Notes under the pieces: generated by a model | Databases searched by the model: none | The model's input: only the letters and a program-made list of their open reading frames with translations | What the model was told of the DNA's origin: nothing | Translations under genes and position numbers: made by a program | Shown here: positions 14,620 to 63,836 of the stretch, piece after piece | How positions within the stretch are numbered: position 1 is the stretch's first letter | How the letters are laid out: the number at the start of each line of letters is the position of its first letter | IMG/VR virus record: IMGVR_UViG_3300045988_090162 | Origin: a virus | DNA length: 64,000 bases | Strand: one strand, 5' to 3'

Positions 14620-14626
14620 ATTTTCG

Positions 14627-14698
14627 TGCGCTAGTGGAGATTCGAACTCCAATCTCAAGAACGTCACCTTGCAATTTTGCCAGTTAAACTACTAACAC
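14627..14698 (-). tRNA. tRNA-like gene with atypical anticodon arm (possible pseudo-tRNA or non-canonical tRNA)
   Basis: Good acceptor (GTGTTAG/CTAGCGC with two G·U pairs), D-arm GTTT-AACTGGCA-AAAT and T-arm TGGAG-TTCGAAT-CTCCA; the anticodon region folds only as CAAGG/TCTTG around a 6-nt loop TGACGT (or a 4-bp stem with an 8-nt loop). Confidence 0.45.
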
Positions 14699-19093: not shown

Positions 19094-19162
19094 TTGGAGT
19101 GACAAGACTCGAACTTGCGACACGTTGAGTTAACAACATTCTACCAACTGAATTACACTCCA
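19094..19162 (-). tRNA. tRNA-like gene (69 nt) with atypical anticodon arm (6-nt loop TTAACT)
   Basis: acceptor TGGAGTG/CACTCCA, D-arm ATTC-AGTTGGTA-GAAT and T-arm GCAAG-TTCGAGT-CTTGT are fine; the anticodon region folds only as TGTTG/CAACG around TTAACT. Confidence 0.4.
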
Positions 19163-20348: not shown

Positions 20349-20437
20349 GTAATTTTTTAACTAGGCTGGCTCTTTCTGTGCTGCCCAGAAATTTTATGAT
20401 TCAGAGTCATATGTTCTACTGTTGAACTAAGAGCCAA

Positions 20438-21314: not shown

Positions 21315-21582
21315 TTTATCACCAACTTAAATAATAAATGGAGCCAACTGACAGTGCTGCCCTGTCTGCTTCGCTTTACAAGAGCGATGTATTACTGTTA
21401 TACTAAGCTGGCTTTACCAAAAGAAAAATGAGCCTGCAATACTCTAGAAATCTTGCAGGCTCTAACACCACTATTACAATATAATAGTTGCGCAACAAAA
21501 ATTATAACTTTTTGCCCAGAACTTTTATTTTGTAACTAAAGTTATTATACCATATTAGTATAACGTCTGTCAAGAACTTTTT

Positions 21583-26999: not shown

Positions 27000-27647
27000 T
27001 CACATACCTAACTTCTCTAATAAATATTGAGAATTAATTTTATTATAATCATAATATGGTATACGTATAAGATTGATATTATTATCAATGCAAAATTTCG
27101 TTTTTATAGAATCACGATATAATACTTCATTAAAGTTGTTTTCGTCATTCCATCCTGTAATTTTATAATGTTGAATACCATCATACTCGATACAAGTATT
27201 ATAGTCTGGCAAATAAAAATCAAAACGTAATGGACAAGACGTTTTAGGATTAATGCAACCTTCAAAAGTCTTTTGCGTGATATAAGGTATATTTGAATTA
27301 TTTAAGATTTCATTTATAAGGAATTCTCCCTTTGATTTTAAACATCCACACGATTTAGTATGTCCAGAAATTAAATGTCCTGTACCAACATATACAATAT
27401 TACCACAACTACATTGGCATTTCCATAATTTTGATTTATTTTTACTTCCTTTTTGACTTGCTTGGATAACTTTTGACCTTCCAAACATTTGTCCAACAAG
27501 ACTTCTACCAGCGCATCCACATGAAGTAGTGCTTAACGTCTTTAGCGCCGTTGCAGAAACGTCTACTTCCAAACCACAGTCGCATAGACAATGCCAATAA
27601 TTATTATTACTAGAATCTGTTTTATTTATTTTATATAAAGCAGCCAA
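27000..27647 (-). CDS. putative endonuclease with a duplicated N-terminal Cys-rich (zinc-finger-like) module
   Basis: Two copies of C.C.CG...V.....L.SG.TKSCGC, then a C-terminal IEYDGIQHY block typical of homing/restriction-like endonuclease folds. Confidence 0.4.
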   Translation of the reverse strand: MAALYKINKTDSSNNNYWHCLCDCGLEVDVSATALKTLSTTSCGCAGRSLVGQMFGRSKVIQASQKGSKNKSKLWKCQCSCGNIVYVGTGHLISGHTKSCGCLKSKGEFLINEILNNSNIPYITQKTFEGCINPKTSCPLRFDFYLPDYNTCIEYDGIQHYKITGWNDENNFNEVLYRDSIKTKFCIDNNINLIRIPYYDYNKINSQYLLEKLGM

Positions 27648-55470: not shown

Positions 55471-55884
55471 ATGCGAATGGCAAAGTGTCCTATGTGCGGG
55501 CAGCATAATGTCAACGGTTTTAAAAAGAACAACAAATGGTATTCAACTTGTTATAATAAAGAGTGCCGTTATACTACTGAGGTTGGTATGCCAACACGCA
55601 AAATGAGTCGTTTTAGTTGGAATCTGAACTATGAGCGTTTGACTGGCGAGACTCTTCCCGATGAAATGACTGGTCGGCAGCAGGGCGCTTATATGAAAAA
55701 GGAGATTCGTTGCGGTGTACCCGAACTAGTCCAGTGTTTCACCCAAGAAGACTTTGAGAACTGGGAACAGACTTATGACTACTCAAAAATTGACTGGGTT
55801 AAGGAAAATGGTAAGAAAGCCGGAGCAGCCCGCCGTAAAACTCGTGCCAAAGAACGTGCGGAAAAGGGACAGAAATGCAAATAG
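55471..55884 (+). CDS. zinc-ribbon protein
   Basis: CPMCGQ...CYNKEC N-terminus and basic C-terminus; RBS AAAGGAG. Confidence 0.5.
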   Translation: MRMAKCPMCGQHNVNGFKKNNKWYSTCYNKECRYTTEVGMPTRKMSRFSWNLNYERLTGETLPDEMTGRQQGAYMKKEIRCGVPELVQCFTQEDFENWEQTYDYSKIDWVKENGKKAGAARRKTRAKERAEKGQKCK

Positions 55885-56159
55885 ATGTGCTTTACGAAGT
55901 TATTGTGCCTGAGCATATGGATAAGCAACTTAAAATAGGTCGGCCAGGATATTATGAAGACGCTGGATTCTTTTCTGGTTATCGTTATGTCCCAGCAGTT
56001 TCCTGCAACTTTGGAGCCTGTAATAGTTTCTGAAAAGCGATATATTTTTGAAAAAAGAAAAAAGGCTAAAAAGTTTTGTTTAGAGCATAATTATCCGTTT
56101 GAATATATTCATAAACGAAAATGCTAAATATAACATTCTACATATAACGAAGGACGGTG

Positions 56160-59100
56160 ATGCCAATGACAGTGCCGCGATTTGATATTCACAATCACAC
56201 GCACTACTCCTAACCAACTTACGACTTATTGATTCAACTGTCAAACCAAAAGAACTAATTGATAGAGCTATAGAATTAGGTCTTGCGGGAATCGCAATCA
56301 CCGACCATGAGTCATTAGGTGGACACGTAGAGATTGACCGCATTCAAGAGGAATATAAAGATAAGTATCCTGATTTCAAAATCGTTCGCGGCAATGAAAT
56401 TTATCTTACAGACACACGAGATTCGGGTCAATATTACTATCACTTTGTTCTCTTAGCCTTAGATGCTATTGGTCATAAGATGCTACGTGAGCTATCTTCT
56501 ACTGCTTGGATTAACAGCTATTTTGACCGAGGAATGGAACGTGTACCTACTCTAAAGTCAGACCTTGCGGCCATTGTCGAAAAATATGGAAAAGGTCACC
56601 TACACGGTAGCTGTGCCTGCCTAGCAGGAGAAGTAAATCATAATCTTAATCTTATGATTCAAGCTGAAAAACAAGGAGACACCGCACAAGTTAAAGCATA
56701 TCATAAGAATATTGTAATTTTTATCAAGTGGTGTGTATCAATCTTTGGCAAAGATTATTTCTCTTTAGAAGTAGCTCCTGGTCGTAGCGAAGAACAATTC
56801 GCTGTTAATTCCAGAATGAATTCTTTATCTAAAGTATTTAATCTTCCAATCGTGCTAGGATGTGATACTCATTATCTAAAAAAAGAAGATAGATATGTAC
56901 ACAAGGCTTTCCTTAATTCTAAAGGTGGAGAGCGTGAAGTAGATTCATTTTATGAATATTGTTATCTACAGTCTGAAAAAGAGATTATAGAAAATCTTGA
57001 TGGCACAGGTCTTGATTATGAAGAACTATGCGCCAACTCAATGAAGATTCTTGATAAATGCCAGTATTATACTTTATATCATAAACAACAAGTGCCGCAA
57101 GTAGAAGTTCCTTCTTATCCAAAAGAAGAAAAGAACCATCATTTCTATGATACGGATAAATATCCTACGCTTGATTATCTTATGCACTCCGATAATCCGC
57201 AAGAACGTTATTGGATAAATTATTGCCAGAATGAATTAAACAAAAAAGGATTAAATAATGAAACGTATCTTGCGAGGTTAGAGGAAGAAGCAGACATCAA
57301 CAAAGTTATTGGTGACAAACTTGAGACTTGTATGTTTGCTTACCCTATTTTCCTACAGCATTACATTAATCTCTTTTGGGAATGCGGCTCAACAGTTGGC
57401 GCTGGTCGAGGGTCAGCCTGTTCTGGTCTTAACCATTGGCTTTTAGGAGTTACACAACTAGACCCAGTTGTCAATAGTCTTCCTTATTGGAGATATTCTA
57501 ATAAAGAGCGCATCGAATTAGGTGATATTGATATAGACTTAGCCCCGTCTAAACGTGAACTAGTCTTTGAGAAAATCAGAGAAGAGCGTGGTCAATTAGG
57601 ATGCGTACAGGTCTGTACGTATGGCACAGTTACTTCTAAAGCGGCTGTAAAAATTGCCTGTCGAGGATACCGTTCAGAAAAATATCCAGATGGTATTGAG
57701 CTAGATGAAGCTGAATACCTTTCTTCTTTAATTCCTTCTGAACGTGGCTTTGTTTGGCCTTTATCTGATTGTTTTTTTGGCAACGAAGAGAAGAAACGTA
57801 AACCTAATAAAACCTTTGTCCAAGAGGTAAACAAGTTTCCCCGTCTACAAGAAATCTTATTAAATATCTGCGGCCTTGTTACACAACGAGCTATTCATGC
57901 TTCTGGTGTTAACTTTTACGGAGAAGACCCATACCAGACGGCTTGCTTTATGAAAGCTAAGAACGGCGCTATTATTACACAATATTCTCTAGCGGATGCA
58001 GAGTACTGCGGTGATGTGAAGCTCGATTTCCTTGTGACAGAAGTGCAGGATGTAATTACTCAGTGCCTTAATCTCTTACAGGAGAATGGTAAGATTGAAA
58101 CTGGTCTAACACTTCGTCAAATGTATGATAAGTACCTGCATCCTACCATGTTGCCGTTACACGATGAAAAGTTGTGGAAAGCAGCTGTCTCTGGCAAGGT
58201 CTTGAAATTTTTCCAATTTGACACACAGGTCGGCGGTCAGACAATTAAGCTCTTAAAGCCGCACACTCCACTTGAAATGGCGAACTGCAATTCTATTATG
58301 CGTCTCATGGCTAGCGAACAAGGTGATGAAACACCAACAGAACGATACAAACGCATGAAAGATGATATGTCGCAATGGTACGCGGAAATGGATAGGTGGG
58401 GTCTTTCAAAAGAAGAACAAAAAAGTCTAGAGAAATATTATCTGCCAACGTATGCGGCACCTGCTCAGCAGGAAGACATGATGATAATCCTAATGGAAGT
58501 CTGCGGCTTTTCTTTATCTGAGTCGAATTTTGCAAGAAAAGTTTGTGCAAAAAAGAAGATGGACAAGATTCCTGAGTTGAGAAAAATGGTATTACAAGGT
58601 GCTCCAAATGAGAATCTTGGCAAGTATATTTGGGAGACTGCTATCAAACCACAGATGGGCTACTCATTTTCTCGAATTCATTCTCTTGCTTATTCCTATA
58701 TTGGCCTTCAAACGGTCTATTTAGCTACCTATTTTCCTGTCGTATATTGGAATACAGCTTGTCTTCGAGTCGATGCTGGTCTTGATGAAGATGCCGCATC
58801 TAACTATGGTAAAATTGCTAAAGCAATTGGTAATATGATTAACAATGGTGTTACAGTAAAGCCAGTCAATATCAACAAATCTGGTTATCTATTTGAGCCA
58901 GACGAAGAAGATAATGCTATTCTATATGGAATGAAATCTTTAAACGGAGTTGGCGGCGAAGTTGTTTCAAGAATTATTGCAAATCGTCCATACAATTCGT
59001 TTCAAGATTTTCTAGATAAAAATAATGAAAATAAGACTACAGTTTTAGCTCTTATTAAAGGCGGTGCTTTTGATTCTTTCGATAGCCGCAAAAATATTAT

Positions 59101-60013
59101 GAAACAATATATTGAGATTGTAAGTAATCCTAAAAAGCGTATTACAATGCAAAACTTTAAATCTTTAATTGATTATAAGCTCATTCCAAAAGAATTAAAG
59201 TTCCAAAAGCAAGTGTTCAATTTCGATAAGACAATGAAAAAACAATGCAAATATACAACAGAAGAATTTGATTTAAGCAAATCAGATATACATTATAAGT
59301 TTTATAATAAATATTTTGATACTGATAATCTATATATTAAAAACAATTCTATATGTCTAAATAAAAAGACTTGGAAAAAAGAATATAATAAAGTAATGCT
59401 CGCTGCAAAAAACTACATCCAAGAGAACAAAGAAGAGTTATTACAGAAGTTAAATAGGAAGCTATTCTTAGAACAATGGAATACATACGCGGCAGGTACA
59501 TATTCAACTTGGGAAATGGATGCTCTTGGATATTATTACCACAAGCATGAATTATTAAATGTTGATAAATCTATTTATAATATAGTATCATATAATAGTC
59601 TGCCAACAATTCCGCCTACTGATTATGTATTTAAGCGTGGCGATAAAGAGATTAAAATTCCTAAGACCTATAGAATTATGGGTACAGTAGTCGGCAAGAA
59701 TAATACAAAAGGACAAGTTGATATTCTTACAACTGATTCTGGCGTTGTAACTGTTAAGTTTGCATTAGATTATTTTGCAAAATATAATCGCCGTGTAAGT
59801 GAAAATGTAAATGGTGAAAATAAGGTCATGGAACAAGGATGGTTTCAAAAAGGTGCCTTAATTGTAGTCAATGGCTATCGAAACGGTGATATGTTTAGGG
59901 CAAAGAAATACAAGAAGACTAATTCACATCAACTATATAAAATCACGAAAGTGAATAAAGACGGTACCATAGAAATGACTAATAGCCGCTATGGCGAAAA
60001 TGTTGACAATTAA
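56160..60013 (+). CDS. DNA polymerase III alpha subunit (DnaE-like, family C) with an N-terminal frame discontinuity
   Basis: RBS AAGGACGG then ATG at 56160. Frame 0 encodes MPMTVPRFDIHNHTHYS (PHP motif I) and then hits TAA. Frame 2 continues from 56225 as LIDSTVKPKELIDRAIELGLAGIAITDHES... (PHP motif II) through 60013, including GRGSACSGLNHWLLGVTQLDP. Removing the 14 nt at 56211-56224 restores one continuous PHP domain. Confidence 0.6.
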
Positions 60014-60888: not shown

Positions 60889-62088
60889 TTGACTAAATAT
60901 ATTACAAAGCGAAATGGAAATAAAGTAGAGTTCGATATTTCTAAGATTGAAAATGCAGTATTTCGTGCGGCATATGATGTTTCTGGTACTCTTGGATGGA
61001 CATGGACGTTTTGTCATGAGATTGCAAGAGACATTGCAAATGACTTTGAAAAAGCCGAGTATTATCATGACGGTATGACAGTAGAGGAGATTCAGGATGC
61101 TGTTGAAGAACTACTCATGGGCGATTTTCCGCATGTTGCAAAGTCATATATGATTTATCGTTATGAACACCAGATTGCACGCCAGAAACATAATGATGCT
61201 GAAATTCTTGATATGATTAAGAATGACCCAGAAAGTTACTGGGCAACAGAGAATAGCAATAAAAACGCTAAGCTCGTTACTGTGCAACGAGACTATCTTG
61301 CTGGCATTACAAGCACAGATATTGCTCGTAATTATATTTTCCCTAAGAAAGTAATTGAAGCTCACGACGCTGGTATTTGCCATCAACACGATATGGATTA
61401 TATGGCACAATCAACTCTTCATAACTGTGACCTTATCAATCTAGAAGACATGCTGCAAAATGGCACAGTCATTAACAATGTGCGTATCAACAAACCGCAT
61501 CGTCTTTTAACAGCTATGACAGTAACAACGCAAATTATGGCTAGTGTTGCGGCCAATTCTTATGGTGGAGAATCTATTACATTAACTCATTTAGCACCTT
61601 TCGTTCGTGATAGCTACAATATCTTTAAAAACAAATATAAAGATGAAGATATTTCAGATGAATTAAAAGAAAAGTTTGCATTGGCAGATTTAAAAAAAGA
61701 AATTGCTGATTCAGTGCAGACTTTTAATTATCAAATTTCAACGTTGTTTACATTAAATGGACAGGCGCCATTTTGCTCCCTGTTCATGTATATTGGCGAG
61801 ACAGAAGAATATAAGAAAGAATTAATTCTTCTTATTGAAGAGTTTTTAAAGCAACGAGAAAAAGGTATGCCAAATCGTCAAGGTGTATATGTTACGCAAG
61901 CATTTCCAAAGTTGTTATATGTTCTTGAAGAAGATAATTATAAACCCGGAACCAAATATTGGAATGTAACTAAAAAAGCAGTTGAATGTTCTGCTAAGCG
62001 CCTAACTCCTGATTATATTAGTGAAAAGGTAATGAAGCAAATCAAGGTAGATGCAAATGGTGAAGGCCATTGTTTTCCTTGCATGGGT
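60889..62088 (+). CDS. nrdD: anaerobic ribonucleoside-triphosphate reductase NrdD, exon 1
   Basis: N-terminal ATP-cone (ITKRNGNKVEFDISKIENAV); exon ends ...CFPCMG at U62088. Confidence 0.7.
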
Positions 62089-62801
62089 AAGCGTAAACTA
62101 TAGCCTATGTAAAATCTTTTGAATTCGGATAGGACTTAGATTTAAGTTGAGTCCGAACTAATATACATATTTAAAATCATAGAAAGGAGTTCTTTCTATG
62201 GAAAAATCAACACAATATAATAATATTTCTGTAACAGATGATGGTAAAGTATACAAAACAAAAAAGAATGGTAACAAAATAGAGCTTTGCCAATGGGTTG
62301 ACAATGTTGGGTATAAACAAGTAAAAAGTACAGATGATAAACAAGCTATTTATTTACGTGTGCATAGATTAGTCGCAGAAACTTTTATCCCAAATCCACA
62401 AAATTTACCGCAAGTTAATCATAAAGATGGAAACAAATTAAATAATGTGGTAGAAAATTTAGAGTGGTGTAACAACAAAGAAAATACTCAGCATGGATAT
62501 AATCACAATTTATATAAATCAACAGTTAGATGTCCAGTTAAAGCTACTAATAAAGAAAGTAAAATGGAATATATATTTCCAAGTATTCGTAAATGTGCAG
62601 AAGAACTAAAATTAAACAGAAAAACTATTACAGCTATTTTAAAGCATGAAAAAACAAATAATTATGATTATGATTTTGAATATGTATAATGTGTATCGAC
62701 TATTCCGAAAGGAAGTAGAGATAATAATTATCTCGAAGTAAGAAGACTATCCAATAGGATAGATGATATAGTCAGTGCGGCAGGTGACTGCCGACAACAT
62801 G
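62089..62801 (+). mobile_element. group I intron in nrdD carrying an HNH homing-endonuclease ORF
   Basis: 5' exon ends in U and the intron ends in G (62801); P1 guide GCCTATG (62103-09) pairs with exon CATGGGT; the exon junction restores CMG|CRSFLSPY. Confidence 0.7.
62198..62689 (+). CDS. HNH homing endonuclease (intron-encoded)
   Basis: [13 protein letters not shown]...[27 protein letters not shown] (HNH_3-type); RBS AAAGGAG. Confidence 0.75.
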
Positions 62802-63836
62802 TGTAGAAGTTTCCTGTCTCCATATATAGATGAAAATGGTAAACCCAAATATTATGGACGATTCAATTGCGGCGTTTCCAGCCTTAATCTTCCAGATACA
62901 GCTTTTGCCGCACAAGAAGAACTTAAATATGATACAGATAAATCACAAGAGCATCTTTTTGAAATCTTTTTCAAATTATTGGATGAACGAGCTGAAATCT
63001 GTCATGCCGGACTAAAAGTCCGCGTTGATAGACTTTCAAAAACAAAAGCTGGCGTAGCTCCAATCCTATGGGTAGATGGTGCTTTAGCTAGACTAGACCC
63101 AGAAGATACTCTAAACAAGTTAGTTCATAATGGATATGCTACAGTCTCGCTTGGATATAATGGCGGTAACGAAGCCATTAAAATTCTTATTGGAGAAGAC
63201 AATTTCACCAAGAATGGACAAGAACTGATGCTACGAATTCTCAAGTTCTTGACCAATAAGTGTGAAGAATGGAAGCAAGCAGAGAACGTTGGGTATTCAC
63301 TTTATGCGTCTCCAGCAGAGTCATTGTGTTACAAGTTTGCAACTAAGACTAAAGAACGTTATCCAAACCAGTTCAAGAAACTGTTTGGGAACAAAAAGTA
63401 TTTTGAAAATTCTTATCATATCCCAAGTTCTCAACCAATTGACCCCTTTTCTAAGATTGAACTTGAAGGCGAATTTCAAAAGTATTCAGTTGGTGGTTGC
63501 CTAAGCTATGTAGAGAGTTCTGACGTATCTAAAAATATATCCGTTCTGTATCCAATTTTAGAGTGTATTTATAATAATATTATGTATTGTGAAATCAATA
63601 CAAAAACTTCTTATTGCCATGTATGCGGCGAATCACAAACTATTGACGTTCACAAAGATGAAGAAGGAAATACATGGTGGGAATGCTCTAATTGTGGTAA
63701 TACAGACACAGATAAAATGGATGTTGCTGCACGTACTTGCGGATATGTTGGAGTCAACTTCTGGAACGATGGCAAGACTCAAGAAATTGCTTCTCGTTAT
63801 AAGCATATTGATGACCATGAGATTGGTGAAGAATGA
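62802..63836 (+). CDS. nrdD: anaerobic ribonucleoside-triphosphate reductase NrdD, exon 2
   Basis: CRSFLSPY active-site region, C-terminal zinc ribbon CHVCG...CSNCG, and glycyl-radical motif RTCGYVG. Confidence 0.7.
   Translation, partial: CRSFLSPYIDENGKPKYYGRFNCGVSSLNLPDTAFAAQEELKYDTDKSQEHLFEIFFKLLDERAEICHAGLKVRVDRLSKTKAGVAPILWVDGALARLDPEDTLNKLVHNGYATVSLGYNGGNEAIKILIGEDNFTKNGQELMLRILKFLTNKCEEWKQAENVGYSLYASPAESLCYKFATKTKERYPNQFKKLFGNKKYFENSYHIPSSQPIDPFSKIELEGEFQKYSVGGCLSYVESSDVSKNISVLYPILECIYNNIMYCEINTKTSYCHVCGESQTIDVHKDEEGNTWWECSNCGNTDTDKMDVAARTCGYVGVNFWNDGKTQEIASRYKHIDDHEIGEE

Follow-up and report, generated by a model that had tools for sequence, protein, structure and literature searches.

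A conserved frame break in a DnaE-type phage DNA polymerase gene suggests short translational bypassing at a stop codon

The DNA polymerase locus of the window

A 64,000-nucleotide (nt) stretch of viral DNA (IMG/VR record IMGVR_UViG_3300045988_090162), called the window throughout, carries a gene for a phage DNA polymerase III alpha subunit that is divided between two reading frames. Fifteen codons ending at a TAA stop encode the first motif of its PHP domain, and the rest of the protein is encoded in another frame just downstream. Comparison with related phages indicates that the break is under selection and suggests that ribosomes cross it by a short hop. The features of the locus are as follows (ORF, open reading frame).

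56150..56161, plus strand: Shine-Dalgarno-like sequence of the polymerase, AAGGACGGTGAT, invariant in 11 relatives.
56166..56168, plus strand: probable start codon ATG; L001 has ATA at 56160, and L020 has the second ATG only.
56166..56210, plus strand: ORF1, 15 codons, MTVPRFDIHNHTHYS, with PHP motif I (metal ligands H9 and H11); it matches the N-termini of uninterrupted homologues.
56208..56210, plus strand: proposed take-off codon TCC (Ser15), marked out by codon tallies; TCT in other clade members.
56211..56213, plus strand: stop codon TAA in the frame of ORF1, which would fill the A site at take-off; always a stop in broken relatives.
56211..56215, plus strand: proposed untranslated coding gap TAACC, 5 nt; its removal gives ...HTHYS-NLRLIDST..., collinear with all uninterrupted homologues.
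56213..56215, plus strand: proposed landing triplet ACC, whose CC, kept in 15/15 contexts with a 5-nt gap, could pair with G34 and G35 of a tRNA-Ser(GGA).
56216..56218, plus strand: resume codon AAC (Asn16); AAY in every hop-type and intact member.
56216..60013, plus strand: ORF2, the remainder of the DnaE/YorL-type polymerase, 1265 codons plus stop, with the remaining PHP ligands, the polymerase III alpha core, the fingers and HHH_6.

The short frame reads ATG(56160) CCA ATG(56166) ACA GTG CCG CGA TTT GAT ATT CAC AAT CAC ACG CAC TAC TCC TAA, and the true start is probably ATG 56166 rather than the unconserved ATG 56160. The polymerase frame stays open over 56186-60013, with ATG 56480 as the earliest ATG, GTG or TTG in it. 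The short ORF is M(PM)TVPRFDIHNHTHYS, running from ATG56160 or ATG56166 to TCC56208-10 and ended by TAA 56211-13, and the ORF from ATG 56480 has 1177 amino acids (aa). An initial annotation made from the letters of the window was accurate in its reading of them: it placed PHP motif I ahead of a TAA, gave the 14 nt at 56211-24 as taaccaacttacga, and put the polymerase body in another frame, with Met 56480 as a possible start.

The product is a DnaE-type polymerase III alpha subunit with 38% identity to YorL of Bacillus phage SPbeta, in which Pfam recognizes PF07733, PF17657 and PF14579 beside the PHP domain. Once the two pieces are joined, the repaired N-terminus gives a full PHP match (PF02811, residues 7-201, E = 1e-22); the ORF from Met 56480 has no PHP match, and the homologue P0001 likewise lacks PF02811. 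In a 23-sequence alignment the PHP metal ligands H9, H11, D21, H46, E76, H91, C150 and D232 are invariant and H234 is nearly so. By sequence, the gene encodes a DnaE/YorL-type phage DNA polymerase III alpha with a PHP domain predicted to be of the active type. A protein search returned more than 100 clusters, 55-81% identical and drawn for the most part from metagenomes of gut and rumen. Against cultured phages, megablast of the locus gave no match, and tblastn of the N-terminus gave no member of either recoding class described below (hop or +1) among the 60 best of 353 matching records.

The coding gap probably spans 5 nt

Uninterrupted homologues share the consensus H-x-H-[ST]-x-x-S-N-[IL]-R-[LI]-[LI]-D. 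Ser15 is followed directly by Asn16-x-Arg18 in more than 100 of them, and R5, H9, H11, S15, N16, R18 and D21 are invariant in the 23-sequence alignment; P0003, uninterrupted and 75% identical, reads HNHTCYSNLRLIDST. The polymerase frame of the window reads N-L-R-L-I-D-S-T from AAC 56216. The codons AAC TTA CGA (56216-24) are thus coding, and the skipped stretch would therefore be TAACC (56211-15) only, a 5-nt gap that restores the family spacing S15-N16-x-R18-x-x-D21 exactly.

The initial annotation had instead proposed a gap of 14 nt with a perfect HTHYS-LIDST junction. That model suits the generic bacterial DnaE motif YSxxDG but not the present phage family, which has three extra residues there, the Asn16-x-Arg18 that homologues carry right after Ser15 and that the window encodes as N-L-R at 56216-24. 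Translational bypassing, one of the explanations then offered, was right in kind, but the size is 5 nt and not a gene-60-like 14 nt, and the junction claimed for it drops three conserved residues. Related phages have breaks at the same site, with gaps of 5-10 nt.

The break recurs and both pieces are under purifying selection

The same break was found in 15 sequence-distinct contexts with a 5-nt gap from many independent assemblies. Ten other IMG/VR contigs, distinguished by single-nucleotide polymorphisms, share it, as do Logan assemblies of ERR4089913/14 and numerous human-gut assemblies from ENA; some of these are contigs of 130-146 kb with coverage of 130-155x. The window locus itself is 100% identical to 134-143-kb IMG/VR contigs.

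Relatives were compared with the window by the Nei-Gojobori method, as proportions of synonymous (pS) and nonsynonymous (pN) differences. The 15 codons before the stop gave pS of 0.21-0.32 and pN of 0, with one exception, L187, where a single replacement in ORF1 changes Ile to Val ahead of the first His. Over the 88 codons from Asn16 to Met 56480 (56216-56479), pS was 0.2-0.4 and pN 0.01-0.03; the gene body gave 0.3-0.48 and 0.014-0.02, with L008, L020, L181, L183 and L198 left out of the gene-body dN/dS because indels make their values invalid. Both N-terminal pieces have pN/pS of about 0-0.05 across synonymous divergence of up to about 0.45, or 0.74 against L020. The change from AAC to AAT at Asn16 in L005 and L008 is synonymous in the polymerase frame only. 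Purifying selection on both pieces implies that both are translated, each in its own frame, and that the break is old. On this comparative evidence the frame break is real, far beyond chance and under selection.

The 45 nt upstream of the stop (window 56166-56210 against L020:1457-1501) have a pS of 0.21, against 0.74 in the rest of the gene; the clade of L020 is 81% identical. This low divergence between the window and L020 could mark a tract of co-conversion, or else the mRNA or the nascent peptide may be constrained there.

An allelic series between Ser15 and Asn16

Junction variants were collected by three routes: inspection of the DNA of homologues with odd called N-termini, protein-guided retrieval of loci, and two DNA-pattern censuses. 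Together they yielded 36 distinct junction contexts (34 + 2), all between Ser15 and Asn16 and all with the same layout, in which TCY (Ser) is followed by a stop, then by a Ser codon or CC, and then by AAY. Sorted by gap length (skipped bases in brackets), the forms are as follows.

5 nt: TCY[TAACC]AAY, TCY[TAGCC]AAC, TCT[TGACC]AAT
6 nt: TCT[TAGTCT]AAT
7 nt: TCT[TAGGTCT]AAT, TCT[TAACTCT]AAT, TCT[TAGTTCT]AAT, TCC[TAGGTCC]AAT
8 nt: TCT[TAGTGTCT]AAC, TCC[TGATGTCT]AAY, TCC[TGATGTCA]AAT
9 nt: TCT[TAGGTATCT]AAC
10 nt: TCT[TAGTGTGTCA]AAT

In every form, skipping the bracketed bases yields the canonical ...HYS-N[IL]R... without an indel. The 6- and 9-nt gaps are in frame, and readthrough there would add 2-3 residues to the invariant junction; frameshifting therefore cannot be the common mechanism. 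Where the gap is at least 6 nt, a Ser codon precedes the resume codon in 19/19 contexts (TCT 16, TCC 1, TCA 2), and the landing triplet is identical to the take-off codon in 15 of the 19, L180 showing covariation (TCC...TCC). In the window, the landing triplet ACC matches the take-off UCC at two of three bases. Within the 5-nt form TAA, TAG and TGA all occur, so that the first base of the triplet is A or G according to the stop, and CC is constant in 15/15. A stop is present in 36/36 hop contexts, with all three stops used.

Among loci found through their proteins the take-off codon is TCY in 13/13 hop-type genes as compared with 9/79 intact ones, whose Ser15 codons are TCA 25, AGT 24, AGC 15, TCG 6, TCT 6 and TCC 3. 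It is TCY also in 34/34 census contexts, though the search pattern allowed TCN. The peptide before the stop is [ST]HYS in all hop forms, including 9/9 from a peptide-blind census, and in 28/79 intact genes. Eight further census matches (L169, L170, L174, L175, L182, L191 and L188 among them) were discarded because they fall by chance, and out of frame, in genes of other kinds.

A second, putative +1 recoding class among the polymerases

Many other members of the polymerase family carry CGN TTA CTT TGA C five codons past the hop site, where SN[IL]RLL runs into the stop and D[CS]IN follows. A +1 shift at CTT TGA C restores ...RLL-DC... exactly (...SNIRLL-DCIN...). A census of this +1 class gave 39 viral loci in 27 distinct contexts with diverse upstream peptides (L025:1509-1560, L133, L144, L199-L304). 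CUU UGA C is the autoregulatory +1 programmed frameshift site of prfB, the gene for release factor 2 (RF2). The heptanucleotide of the +1 class is identical to it, and prfB resembles both phage classes in that a stop in the A site drives recoding early in the ORF, as proposed here for the hop class. The phage +1 sites show no upstream Shine-Dalgarno stimulator. The window differs from prfB in having neither a +1 shift nor CUU UGA C.

Homing endonucleases upstream of broken polymerase genes

ORFs within 1.3 kb upstream of the polymerase gene were clustered, and distinct loci were counted. An endonuclease gene lay in this interval at 22/59 broken and 4/80 intact loci (odds ratio 11, Fisher p = 1.5e-6, kinship ignored), or, by class, at 9/31 hop, 13/28 +1 and 4/80 intact loci. 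The endonucleases are on the same strand, and at 21/22 broken loci their ends lie no more than tens of nt away from the start of the polymerase gene, about 70-90 nt from the break; at 2/4 intact loci the endonuclease is more than 500 nt away. Two families were distinguished. One has repeated GxRFGKLxV...WxCxCDCG...SCGC modules joined to either an HNH domain or an 'FDF...IEYDG.QH' module; Pfam detects HNH in L025, L223 and L225, and L005, L008 and L123 match PHROGs annotated 'HNH endonuclease', 'homing endonuclease' and 'intron encoded nuclease' (E = 1e-25 to 1e-48). The other combines GIY-YIG with NUMOD1 (L150). Nuclease type tracks break type:

+1 class, 12 loci: HNH 11, FDF...IEYDG type 0, GIY-YIG 0
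Hop class, 9 loci: HNH 1, FDF...IEYDG type 6, GIY-YIG 2

Three members of the window's clade, L005, L008 and L184, have the endonuclease, which is an indel relative to the window: in blastn, homology with L005/L008 breaks at 55815/55858 and resumes at the polymerase Shine-Dalgarno sequence (56146-56150). No endonuclease abuts the polymerase in the window, L020 or L023. A rough neighbour-joining tree built from 122 distinct N-terminal regions mixes hop, +1 and intact forms and requires about 18 parsimony changes, a scatter that is the expected pattern of a horizontally moving trait. Elsewhere in the window, positions 27000-27647 (minus strand) encode a paralogue of the polymerase-abutting endonuclease of L005/L008 (51% identity over 221 aa, E = 4e-59).

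From these associations, and by analogy with the T4 element discussed below, we lean slightly towards the view that the insert is a scar, which destroys the target of a free-standing homing endonuclease inserting just upstream of the polymerase start. The window is proposed to be an orphan in which the insert was kept with no endonuclease at the polymerase. Speaking against this origin, the association statistic ignores phylogeny, 22/31 hop loci, the window included, have no adjacent endonuclease, and two intact genes have one adjoining. The domain of the hop-associated nucleases rests on PHROG annotations and a motif read by eye, Pfam matches being below threshold.

A proposed stop-hop and its alternatives

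That some kind of programmed recoding joins the two ORFs appears very likely from the sequence comparisons. The form that we favour, with a probability of roughly 0.7, is a programmed short translational bypass of 5 nt, or stop-hop; we infer both the hop and its efficiency. Ribosomes would initiate at ATG 56166 and synthesize MTVPRFDIHNHTHYS. While peptidyl-tRNA-Ser occupies UCC (56208-10) in the P site and UAA (56211-13), a stop that is decoded slowly, fills the A site, the tRNA would unpair, the mRNA would slip 5 nt forward, and the anticodon, presumably GGA, would re-pair with the CC of ACC (56213-15). Asn-tRNA would then read AAC (56216) and decoding would resume. The product, ...HTHYS-NLRLIDST..., would be collinear with uninterrupted homologues, carry all nine PHP metal ligands and yield FDIHNHTHYSNLR as its tryptic junction peptide; ribosomes that terminate at the stop would release the 15-residue peptide only. 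All forms could follow one process, in which a tRNA-Ser, probably the GGA isoacceptor that reads UCC and UCU, leaves UCY and re-pairs at UCY 6-10 nt downstream or, in the 5-nt form, at the CC of [A/G]CC ahead of AAY.

Several points weigh against a hop of this kind. The claim rests on comparative sequence. The nascent chain at take-off is only 15 residues long, and the landing triplet ACC is no Ser codon and could pair at 2/3 bases; the 5-nt form, taken by itself, could also use a -1 shift (HYS-LT-NLR). The window site has no stimulatory RNA structure (z about -0.5 relative to shuffled controls), most of the other forms likewise show none of significance, and the window site has no Shine-Dalgarno-like stimulator, 'AGGU' being found in the TAGGT forms only and so not general. 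The synthetic stop-hops of Weiss et al. (1987) in E. coli were reportedly inefficient.

In three longer-gap forms, L123 (2540-2565), L124 and L126, the take-off codon and stop UCUUAGGU can pair with the downstream Leu-Arg codons ACCUAAGA, which places the landing UCU in a loop and is reminiscent of the take-off stem-loop of T4 gene 60. The L123 hairpin has z = -2.55; such UCU-UAR/YUA-AGA hairpins occur in these three only and are absent from the window's form. ARAGORN and Rfam detected no phage-encoded tRNA-Ser in the window. A tRNA-like gene at 14626-14698 (minus strand), inside a tRNA cluster, has a 4-base anticodon 'gacg' according to ARAGORN, an irregular anticodon loop of 6 or 8 nt and an Rfam tRNA score of 37.6 bits. 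It was rejected as a cause of the recoding, as it would read CGUC/U, not present at the site. Rfam tRNAs at 19094-19162, 20366-20436 and 21342-21412 are not in the ARAGORN list.

A conventional -1 (or +2) frameshift at UCC_UAA, in which the polymerase frame is read from CUA/ACC and Leu-Thr (or Thr) is added between Ser15 and Asn16, is unlikely. The arithmetic suits it (5 = +2 = -1 mod 3), and to that extent the -1/+2 recoding named in the initial annotation was correct, the rest not being borne out. The polymerase frame is also open from 56186 with no stop in the gap, the landing ACC is no cognate Ser codon, and other members of the polymerase family carry a true stop-dependent site, CTT TGA C. 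The sequence CAC UAC UCC UAA CCA, however, lacks a slippery run X XXY YYZ, UCC cannot re-pair at CUC (-1) or CUA (+2), and no structure exceeds shuffled controls. A -1 product would have the N-terminal peptide FDIHNHTHYSLTNLR. Every uninterrupted member of the clade has S15 immediately followed by N16. Of the longer gaps, those of 6 and 9 nt are in frame and those of 7, 8 and 10 nt would each need another shift, yet the Ser codon always stands right before Asn; the third base of ACC would be synonymous under a shift, yet it is constant in 15/15 contexts. It is considerably less probable still that the locus makes two separate products, a released 15-residue peptide and a polymerase without PHP motif I that is initiated downstream (by reinitiation, for example at ATT 56228, or at ATG 56480). 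The stop is only a few nt from polymerase-frame codons, and a TTG that overlaps the TGA of L020 is used by gene callers, but in the window that frame holds no ATG, GTG or TTG from 56186 up to 56480, and the hop forms conserve none either. Two of the nine PHP ligands are encoded by the 15 upstream codons, which are under purifying selection, and the pattern of TCY take-off and Ser landing would be left without a reason. The truncated polymerase from Met 56480 that had been considered at the outset is rejected: it would lose PHP, and purifying selection acts as strongly on the 15 codons ahead of the stop and on the 88 that precede Met 56480 as on the gene body.

The probability is negligible that the break is an artefact of sequencing or assembly, or that the gene is a pseudogene lately inactivated in a defective prophage. 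All the assemblies are metagenomic, and one cultured-phage record does have a polymerase fragmented in the manner of errors: Staphylococcus phage S-CoN_Ph17 (L309; OR354840.1, 27902-28931), with several small coding sequences labelled 'DNA polymerase', which was rejected as a case of two-piece recoding. The break, by contrast, is identical across independent runs and assemblers (IMG/VR, ENA, Logan), has no homopolymer at the site and is flanked on both sides by substitutions that are synonymous, each in its own frame, with a pN/pS of about 0.04; the stop varies among TAA, TAG and TGA yet stays a stop, and contigs reach 130-146 kb at high coverage. The 14-nt assembly or sequencing insertion raised earlier is contradicted by the same recurrence in many independent samples, the synonymous changes and the stop variants. 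A hop that is real but regulatory is possible, if doubtful. The stop at codon 16, or at codon 21 in the +1 class, would then serve as a checkpoint that throttles the polymerase or couples it to release factors in the manner of prfB. Both recoding classes do fall within the first 21 codons, where, as in prfB, aborted synthesis costs little; the site of the +1 class is the very one by which RF2 is autoregulated; and the 22/31 hop loci without an adjacent endonuclease still keep the insert at high synonymous divergence. Arguing the other way, all three stops occur at hop sites, so that no single release factor is sensed, the link to abutting endonuclease genes is strong, with nuclease type following break type, and the scattered tree distribution is that of a mobile trait. 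Regulatory and endonuclease-immunity roles are compatible and may coexist.

Relation to known recoding systems

The preferred reading, a natural stop-hop, has its closest architectural precedent in synthetic constructs. A 2016 review of recoding knew stop-hops from such constructs only, described short natural counterparts of gene 60 as 'long presumed' and stated of in-frame stop hopping that 'no occurrences are known' (PMC5009743). In the synthetic E. coli stop-hops (Weiss, Dunn, Atkins & Gesteland 1987; PMC5009743), matched codons flank the stop, the peptidyl-tRNA moves from the first of them to pair again at the second, the stop and landing codon are untranslated, and the distances are +5 and +6, the same architecture as in the TCT TAG TCT form (L150, L161, L166, L310). 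Those sites were engineered, whereas the phage sites are natural, conserved, under selection and in an essential gene, and the window would land on the near-cognate ACC.

In T4, the gene 60 insert moves together with MobA as one cassette and keeps MobA from nicking; lineages often lose the endonuclease yet retain the bypass, and in some a GIY-YIG or VSR nuclease stands in place of MobA (bioRxiv 10.1101/2022.08.31.505936). T4 gene 60 (Huang 1988; Bonocora 2011) shares with the polymerase family a replication-related gene with a non-coding insert and a stop after take-off and, with some members of the family, a matched landing and a linked free-standing endonuclease. Its own features are an insert that also splits the gene into two ORFs, a 50-nt gap (20 nt in one clade), GGA/GGA (Gly) codons, a take-off stem-loop, a 46-residue nascent-peptide signal and its place in the topoisomerase gene 39/60; the polymerase family has a 5-10-nt gap, Ser UCY, no conserved structure, a 15-residue chain, and another gene and phage group. 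By sequence, the window site would work like the gene 60/MobA element but is no member of it, as there is no sequence homology. The terminase of Streptomyces phage phiHau3 (PMC10732093) likewise has short inserts (7-10 nt) in an essential phage gene at conserved junctions to which frameshifting would add residues, and mass spectrometry in E. coli supported bypass there, of 10-nt blocks. It differs in its UUA trigger (a rare sense codon with limiting tRNA), its occurrence in 3/100 terminase genes analysed and its proposed role, which is to sense the growth phase of the host; a link to an endonuclease was not reported (PMC10732093). A literature search for a hop or frameshift in a phage DnaE/YorL polymerase found none.

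We give even odds to the broader proposal that short-range stop-hopping is a selected, recurrent mode of decoding in the polymerases of SPbeta-like gut and rumen phages, driven by endonucleases that seed immunity inserts in their own target. If true, the gene 60/MobA paradigm would cover another gene, another group of phages, several families of endonuclease and two mechanisms of recoding. It would be a second system that ties recoding to homing-endonuclease conflict, suggesting a general route from selfish nucleases to 'impossible' genes. Efficient natural bypassing has so far been known almost entirely from T4 gene 60, its homologues and the yeast mitochondrial 'byps'; the family would provide 36 natural variants, with six gap lengths, three stops and matched, wobble or near-cognate landings, as a ready mutational series for the rules that govern take-off and landing. 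Such polymerases are truncated or given a wrong start by gene callers (P0001, P0002, P0010, P0028 and others), so that their PHP domain is systematically overlooked in annotation.

Neighbouring genes and other selfish elements

Upstream of the polymerase, 55471-55884 (plus strand) encodes a 137-aa Cys-rich ORF (CPxC...C) that has no match in Pfam or PHROG and is conserved in hop-type and intact relatives (L020, L037, L107). Downstream, the window's nrdD, for anaerobic ribonucleotide reductase, is split into 60889-62103 and 62775-63836 (plus strand) at about position 264 of the Pfam NRDD profile. Between the halves lies an HNH_3 / I-HmuI-like homing endonuclease ORF (62198-62689), giving the split an intron-type look; no group I intron was found at the Rfam gathering threshold. 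Within the polymerase family, L008 has an insert of roughly 1 kb in the gene body (about 978 extra nt within the match), and P0075, P0082 and P0118 are homologues of 1674-1702 aa with intein/Hint and LAGLIDADG domains. By these sequences, the polymerase gene appears to be a hotspot for selfish elements.

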